64,000 nucleotides of DNA, taken from Dictyostelium discoideum. Taxonomy: Eukaryota. Below, in pieces: positions 40,192 to 40,730 of the stretch (within the stretch, counting starts at the first letter, position 1; each line of letters begins with the position of its first letter). The position numbers were made by a program, and so were the translations under genes. The stretch covers positions 6,432,001 to 6,496,000 of the forward strand of contig CM000151.3 in NCBI GenBank assembly GCA_000004695.1, written 5' to 3'. The notes under the pieces are model-generated. The model was not told the origin of the DNA and did no database searches. It saw only the letters and a program-made list of their open reading frames with translations.

Positions 40192-40730
40192 AATTGGACC
40201 TATCAGTGGATAATTGAATTAATTATAATTAACTCAGCATATTTTAAAAAAGATCGAGTTATCCCGGAATAAATTCAGTTATTTCGAAAAAAGTTTATTT
40301 TTTTTTGAAAAATTTTTATTAAAACACATTATTTAATAAAAAATTTTTAAATAATATTAAAAAATATTTGTTAAGACCTATCGTAGAATTAAATTTGGTA
40401 GTATTTATAGAGAAATAAAGAAAATATAAAAAAAAAATGAAAATGGAAAAAAAAAAAAGGAACTTCCAAAAAAAAAAAAACTACATATAAAAAATAAATC
40501 CTTTATTTGAGCCCCGGTATTTTTGATTTTTTTTTGTCTATCATACTATTTTTTTATTTATTTATTTATTATATTTTTTATTTTAATTGTTAATAAATGA
40601 AAAAAATTAAAAAAAAAAAATAATATGGCCAATGAAAAATTTTTCGCGAAAAGATTTATTAACTCGATCTTTTTCAAAATAGCTTTTTTTGTTCAGAATT
40701 AATTCAATTATTCACAGAAAGGTCCAGTTT
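40192..40730. mobile_element. MITE-like non-autonomous DNA element, about 540 bp, with roughly 55-bp imperfect terminal inverted repeats.
   Basis: Left end 'ttggacctatcagtggataattgaattaatt...aaaaaagatcgagtta'. The right end, reverse-complemented, reads 'ctggacctttctgtgaataattgaattaatt...gaaaaagatcgagtta'. The interior is AT-rich with no ORF. It sits about 280 bp upstream of a tRNA gene. Confidence 0.55.

Follow-up and report, generated by a model that had tools for sequence, protein, structure and literature searches.

A putative non-autonomous, MITE-like DNA transposon of low copy number abutting TRE5 remnants upstream of a tRNA-Ser gene in Dictyostelium discoideum

The element described here is alike in form to MITEs of the Tourist and Stowaway types, with which it shares a length of about 0.55 kb, an AT-rich, non-coding and hairpin-capable sequence bounded by terminal inverted repeats (TIRs), presence at more than one locus, and sharp boundaries. 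It differs from them in its apparently low copy number (2 loci in 363 kb), whereas MITEs typically reach tens to thousands of copies, and in its unusually long TIRs of about 105 nt, which take up roughly 40% of the element, while neither a clear target-site duplication (TSD) nor, in the 363,442 nt examined, an autonomous parent was found. PIF/Harbinger-type elements generate a 3-bp TSD, canonically TWA. The 3-bp candidate of our element is reminiscent of MITEs of this type, but it reads ANT and not TWA, comes from n = 2 copies, and is to be taken as a lead only.

Within D. discoideum itself, the DDT (A/B/S) and thug (S/T) elements, which we compared by description only, have the same host and include some short members. 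They are described as DNA transposons with transposases unlike those of any known family, and expression and control have been studied for none of them (PMC5633606). DDT-B has been found touching TRE5-A insertions, and its A/B-box motif attracts TRE5-A (PMC9012585), whereas the element described here has no A- or B-box-like motif. Tdd-4 and Tdd-5 of the Ginger2/TDD superfamily are D. discoideum TIR elements with long TIRs as well; they measure 3.8 kb, encode an integrase-like transposase, and feature TIRs of 260 to 297 bp and 5-bp TSDs (PMC2836005). Judged against these described features, our element differs in its TIRs of about 105 nt and in having no 5-bp TSD. The TRE5 elements of this host, for their part, insert upstream of tRNA genes at a distance of about 50 bp and in a fixed orientation, with the 5' end facing the tRNA gene (PMC5633606; PMC9012585). 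A literature search returned nothing relevant on the element's sequence strings or on Dictyostelium MITEs.

The window, by which we mean the whole stretch of 64,000 nucleotides of D. discoideum AX4 DNA analyzed here, has a base composition of 24% G+C with long A and T runs. An earlier note, made from the letters of the window, had placed a MITE-like, non-autonomous DNA transposon with TIRs of about 55 bp at 40192 to 40730. According to our analysis, an inverted repeat is indeed present there: an inverted-repeat search identified arms of 71 nt at 40191 to 40261 and 40660 to 40730, which are 79 to 82% complementary and spaced by 398 nt, and a gapped local alignment returned the same arms. Since A/T runs inflate plain match/mismatch scores in this genome, where 2 of 3,000 random placements reach the observed score and plain scoring is thus unreliable, the arms were rescored with a composition-aware log-odds matrix derived from the base composition of the window. 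The arm pair then obtains 51.8 bits against a null mean of 13.2 (sd 4.1), a score reached by 4 of 8,739 comparisons of the same geometry in 363 kb of dictyostelid DNA (top 0.05%), and the paired positions take in rare G and C bases, as in TGGACC and GATCGAG. No further copy of the arms was found anywhere in the 64-kb window.

In order to look beyond the window, we obtained 14 loci from dictyostelids, each about 21 kb long and referred to below by its L number, by using the neighboring gene and retrotransposon fragments as protein anchors. Sensitive BLAST searches of the element against these loci were swamped by A/T low-complexity matches, so that subsequent searches were filtered by G+C content. 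Termini were identified at only two loci in 363,442 nt of dictyostelid DNA (at most 7 mismatches in 30). The second of them, positions 6476 to 7048 of L008, belongs to the D. discoideum assembly GCA_054859355.1, in which it occupies an unrelated locus with a tRNA Phe/Pro/Ile/Phe cluster downstream of it. The two copies, of 532 bp in the window and 573 bp in L008, align from end to end with 93.7% identity over 527 aligned positions and few indels. Their homology begins exactly at TGGACC (40195) and stops exactly at GGTCCA (40726), and the flanks are unrelated on both sides. The repeated unit thus ends where the inverted repeat ends, as is characteristic of a TIR-bounded mobile unit; the element is a discrete unit that has probably moved, and both a chance match and a local palindrome are ruled out. 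The earlier note would have given up its reading for an element that is single copy in the genome with no TSD, or for an insignificant TIR match; the element has a second locus and significant arms. Its true ends, as defined by the second copy, are 40195 and 40726.

The mobile unit (TGGACC...GGTCCA) accordingly spans 40195 to 40726, with no strand assigned, and consists of 532 bp with 18.4% GC and no conserved ORF, in line with the AT-rich, non-coding interior first described for it. On the basis of arm alignments in both copies, the left TIR extends from 40195 to 40299 on the plus strand, with the terminal block TGGACCTATCAGTGGATAATTGAATTAATT and the subterminal block TATTTTAAAAAAGATCGAGTTATCCCGGAA, while the right TIR extends from 40633 to 40726 on the minus strand, with an approximate inner limit and an 11-nt deletion. 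This loss affects the inner block of the right arm, where the subterminal block is left without its CCCGGAA part; the right arm of the L008 copy retains GATAACTCGATC preceded by CCGG, which the window copy is missing. It is because of this deletion that the arms can be aligned over only 71 nt in the window, compared with about 105 nt of pairing in L008, and in either copy they are longer than the 55 bp or so previously estimated.

Every arm combines TGGACCTATCAGTGAATAATTGAATTAAT as its terminal block with TATTTTGAAAAAGATCGAGTTATCCCGGAA as its subterminal block. Both blocks are conserved across arms and copies, whereas the approximately 20 nt separating the two blocks differ between left and right arms. 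The left arms of the window and L008 copies are 96.2% identical and the right arms 93.5%, while the left and right arms inside one copy are only about 80% alike. Since corresponding arms across copies are more alike than the arms within a copy, the imperfect two-block TIR is ancestral to both copies and not the outcome of the decay of a local duplication. Furthermore, the terminal core is present a third time inside the element, as (A/G)GACCTATC-GT..AAT at 40374 to 40395 on the plus strand, oriented as the left end. It occurs at an equivalent place in both copies (element position 180 in the window and 212 in L008), and its significance is modest, with the 9-mer found elsewhere about once per 48 kb at no more than one mismatch. 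Both copies are predicted to fold into a single long hairpin (z = -6.3 and -10.4 relative to shuffled controls), as is expected for any TIR element.

The longest stop-free stretches of the element are 53 to 55 amino acids long and of low complexity, their frame is not conserved between the two copies, and the stretch that is stop free in both copies gave no matches in a protein-library search. Rfam returned no match to the element, and the only hits in the window are two tRNA genes. Neither an A box nor a B box was detected in the element within 2 mismatches, while the tRNA-Ser gene used as control matches both exactly. On these grounds we rejected the possibility that a Pol III A/B box of the element attracted the adjoining TRE5 fragment, as for DDT-B, since no such motif is present. 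We also rejected a SINE or other retroposed unit, since no A/B box is present and the poly(A) downstream of the copy in L008 is that of the TRE5 element which it interrupts. When we compared the element with the small RNAs in Table 2 of PMC4894637, a set from which thug-S-derived RNA is absent, no match was detected, and the supplements of the small-RNA papers contain no thug-S sequence.

In the DNA examined, the distribution of the element is that of a low-copy unit and not of a high-copy family, and the label "MITE" is used here for its form. Six further TRE5-rich D. discoideum loci, about 127 kb in all, carry no copy. In the 363,442 nt examined we were not able to detect a longer element sharing the termini or a transposase gene. 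The arm consensus had no matches in JGI metagenomes, GTDB genomes, and IMG/VR; the match of a 20-mer of the subterminal block to one GC-rich bacterial contig was set aside as a chance match. The first description as a MITE-like, non-autonomous DNA transposon is therefore largely right, in that a small, non-coding, TIR-bounded unit occurs at two or more loci; no unambiguous TSD was seen, and the copies amount to two loci in 363 kb.

No clean TSD is present at either of the two copies. When the ends are read as TGGACC and GGTCCA, the flanks are AAAT and GTTT in the window and ACAA and ATGT in L008, with no direct repeat, and the corresponding 5-bp flanks are TAAAT/GTTTG and AACAA/ATGTC. The three bases past the first flanking base are reverse complements of one another in both copies (AAA/TTT in the window and ACA/TGT in L008). 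When the ends are instead read as GGACC and GGTCC, a 3-bp A-N-T candidate emerges, which is perfect in L008 (AAT/AAT) and reads ATT/AGT in the window, again with n = 2 copies, and each of these candidates lies within a palindromic 7-mer. Comparison of the empty site in L014, CGAAACATAT-An, with the filled site in L008, CGAACAA-element-ATGTCAT-An, is ambiguous between the two readings of the ends.

In L001, which comes from another D. discoideum assembly and is 99.6% identical over 6.2 kb, the window copy occupies the same site. In D. cf. discoideum (two assemblies), D. dimigraforme, D. firmibasis, and D. citrinum, the orthologous locus lacks the arms, although the flanking gene and the tRNA-Ser gene are conserved there, and the interval between the conserved landmarks is about 350 bp in L002 compared with about 1,540 bp in the window. 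The intergenic DNA of the sibling species is too diverged for an empty site exact to the base, and the evidence at this locus consists of the absence of the arms together with the shorter interval. As far as these sequences tell, the element appears to be restricted to the D. discoideum lineage.

The earlier note had also pointed to a tRNA gene about 280 bp away, and the gene is tRNA-Ser(UGA) at 41009 to 41086 on the plus strand (ARAGORN; Rfam RF00005, 55.7 bits), 282 nt from the right end of the element, with orthologues in L001 to L006. Retroelement debris lies between the two. Immediately to the right of the element, 40727 to 40861 (+) correspond to a 5'-truncated 3' end of a TRE5-type non-LTR element, made up of a 57-nt 3'-UTR module, A26, and a shortened terminal module ending in CTAATAATTGCGTTTTCCGATTC and followed by A11. 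A putative second remnant of the same terminal module, ending in TTTTAATTGCGTTATTTCGATTC and followed by A9, was recognized by reading the sequence at 40862 to 40920 (+), and it resembles the tail motif of L008 and L003. TRE5-type elements, a label which we use above the subfamily level, have here ORF1 and an ORF2 bearing the reverse transcriptase (RT). The 57-nt module also follows the end of ORF2 in the TRE5-type elements of L003, L008, L011 (three times), and L014, and the TRE5 tail motif is found at 7207 to 7234 of L008 and 8546 to 8585 of L003.

Both copies of the element touch this TRE5 3' region, but at different positions relative to the module. The window copy directly precedes the first base of the module and has a left flank which is not TRE5 sequence, whereas the L008 copy follows base 57 and sits within a TRE5-type 3' end, between the 3'-UTR module and the poly(A). 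This copy therefore interrupts another repeat. The paralogous TRE5 element of L014 is uninterrupted there and closely matches the L008 flanks outside the insertion point, from which it differs at 2 of the first 93 aligned positions. L008 and L014 thus provide a filled and an empty site, which are paralogous and not allelic. The contact of both copies with the TRE5 3' region could mean that the element spread in a TRE5-linked manner and not by independent transposition. The proximity to tRNA genes is most simply explained by the fact that both copies are located in TRE5 debris which gathers upstream of such genes, and not by targeting on the part of the element itself.

The orientation of the window's TRE5 remnants is a separate observation. 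The 5' end of the TRE5 element faces the 5' end of the tRNA gene in all six TRE5 loci that we fetched, as well as in L003 and L008. The remnant at 40727 to 40861, however, has its 3' end toward tRNA-Ser and does not follow the canonical orientation rule; the remnants at 40727 to 40920 thus run opposite to the fixed orientation reported for TRE5-A and to that of the eight further TRE5 loci which we looked at. Possible causes are an inversion, the loss of a target, and recombination.

Further features were noted on either side. To the left of the element, an intergenic 79-nt unit occurs twice, at 39734 to 39812 and 39846 to 39924, with 80% identity and 112 nt apart. Downstream of tRNA-Ser by 32 nt, a B-box-like GGTTCGATTAA is found at 41118 to 41128 and a similar AGTTCGATTCC follows the orthologous tRNA gene in L002; we take it to resemble the "external B box" of Dictyostelium tRNA genes. 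Several copies of the motif TTCC(T/C)TTTATTTCCTC(A)n occur at 41250 to 41500, 160 to 400 bp downstream of tRNA-Ser, and may be what is left of a retroelement in the target zone of TRE3. In D. cf. discoideum (L003, 8027 to 8585), a TRE5-like element of about 0.5 kb lies in canonical orientation upstream of the orthologous tRNA-Ser gene and comprises an ORF2 C-terminal remnant, a 3' module, poly(A), and a terminal module. Upstream of this element, at about 8600 to 9560 of L003, we observed approximately 1 kb of sequence richer in G+C.

The second tRNA gene of the window, tRNA-Leu(CAA), is located at 50159 to 50239 on the minus strand (ARAGORN, Rfam). It lies 9.07 kb from tRNA-Ser(UGA) in AX4, whereas the same spacing in relatives is about 60 bp in D. 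firmibasis, 0.75 and 2.6 kb in D. cf. discoideum, and 1.2 kb in D. citrinum; the AX4 interval, 41086 to 50159, is inflated by retroelement insertions. It contains a full-length non-LTR retrotransposon at 43900 to 50050, with ORF2 at 44907 to 48611 (-) carrying an RVT_1 domain and ORF1 at 48611 to 49864 (-). The orientation of this retrotransposon is that of tRNA-Leu(CAA), from which it lies roughly 100 to 300 bp downstream in a TRE3-type arrangement. A partial second copy of the 3' end of ORF2 (amino acids 1001 to 1234) at 44067 to 44769 points to tandem or nested 3' ends.

Elsewhere in the window, the ORF at 37384 to 38784 (466 amino acids) is part of a gene with ZZ, UBA, UBX, and thioredoxin domains and an upstream exon, the product of which is 100% identical to a D. 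discoideum AX4 protein according to a homology search. Two adjacent ORFs of 552 amino acids, at 18283 to 19941 (-) and 22072 to 23730 (-), have the same set of acyl-CoA oxidase domains and are apparently a tandem duplicate, and the ORF at 14221 to 15348 (-) has a strong match to the HAP2/GCS1 gamete-fusion domain (E = 1.7e-76). Among the fetched loci, L007 harbors, at 6700 to 19600, dense repeats of 240 to 550 nt that are 94 to 100% identical, run in both orientations, and adjoin tRNA-His. They are accompanied by fragments of integrase (rve) and RT genes, as in a nest of LTR-type elements, and are dissimilar to the element studied here.

We consider it an even bet that the element is a copy of a catalogued D. 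discoideum DNA-transposon family, such as a short DDT or thug, which would compete with its novelty and not with the mechanism. The repeats of D. discoideum are considered charted, and Tdd, DDT, and thug account for 0.5, 0.9, and 0.1% of the genome, respectively (PMC5633606); one extra copy in approximately 168 kb of TE-rich DNA would roughly fit a family in the 0.1% range. Against this stand the length, TIRs, and TSDs of Tdd-4/5 quoted above, which do not fit, and the lack of a match among the small RNAs of Table 2 of PMC4894637, the set without thug-S-derived RNA. An explanation that does concern the mechanism, and which we think unlikely, is passive carriage with TRE5, where the element, with no transposase of its own, would have been copied inside a TRE5 3' UTR or moved by recombination between TRE5 elements. 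In its favor, both copies directly touch the same TRE5 3' module, and in L008 the element lies within the transcribed unit, with 7 nt between it and the TRE5 poly(A) downstream. However, such carriage is hard to reconcile with the differing positions relative to the module and with the non-TRE5 left flank in the window. Six other copies of the module, moreover, are uninterrupted by the element, namely three in L011, one each in L003 and L014, and that of the window itself. Retrocopies would be 5' truncated, whereas both copies of the element have their full length and the same ends.

The TG...CA termini, the length of about 550 bp, and the location of both copies upstream of tRNA genes would also suit the solo LTR of an LTR retrotransposon, for example one resembling DGLT-A, which integrates upstream of tRNA genes (PMC5633606). 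Yet LTRs do not feature internal inverted repeats of about 100 nt, a direct duplication of 4 to 6 bp is seen at neither copy, the tRNA genes lie 282 and 745 bp away compared with the reported 13 to 33 bp (PMC5633606), and the element is not similar to the LTR-type repeats or the integrase-bearing elements of L007, all of which leaves a solo LTR very improbable. We attribute a similarly slim chance to a hairpin-RNA locus, in which the inverted repeat would be the stem of a small-RNA source maintained for its function. The predicted hairpin is far more stable than shuffled controls in both copies, with the z scores given above, and the D. discoideum DNA transposon thug-S has been reported to yield miRNA-like RNAs (PMC4894637), but any TIR element folds in this way, and the element has no match in Rfam or in Table 2 of PMC4894637 and is absent from the sibling species. 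A chance match between the arms, in DNA that is AT-rich and of low complexity, could be argued from the similar plain scores of A/T runs; its probability is practically nil, given the rank of the arms under composition-aware scoring and the rare G and C among the matched positions, and the second copy with the same arms refutes it.

The reading which we prefer, with a probability of roughly 70%, is that the element is a non-autonomous class II TIR transposon of MITE-like form, restricted to the D. discoideum lineage and present there in few copies. On this reading it is an ordinary low-copy transposon relic. From its architecture we infer cut-and-paste mobilization in trans, in which a transposase encoded elsewhere would bind the terminal TGGACCTATCAGTGAATAATTGAATTAAT and subterminal TATTTTGAAAAAGATCGAGTTATCCCGGAA blocks, and perhaps also the third, internal GGACCTATC motif, as its putative binding sites; once bound, it would excise the unit and then reinsert it at a new site. 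The window copy would be an old insertion, slightly damaged by the 11-nt loss in its right arm, that may have been retained in the tRNA-upstream zone, where TRE5 fragments pile up and insertions would be tolerated in a gene-dense genome. A bolder proposal is that of an uncatalogued DNA-transposon family of the D. discoideum lineage which preferentially inserts into, or survives only in, TRE5 3' ends as a second-order "safe haven," where a position just ahead of the TRE5 poly(A), such as that in L008, could allow co-amplification by retrotransposition; we regard this as distinctly unlikely.

Beyond annotation, the significance of the preferred reading, a transposon of MITE-like form, is small, in that it adds a short TIR element to a genome whose DNA transposons are poorly understood. 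If the family is uncatalogued, the two blocks of its TIR and the terminal motif repeated inside the element would be candidate transposase-binding sites. Filled and empty TRE5 sites give a relative order of insertion, and the repeated contact with TRE5 3' ends is another example of mobile elements stacking in the tRNA-upstream safe zones of a compact genome.
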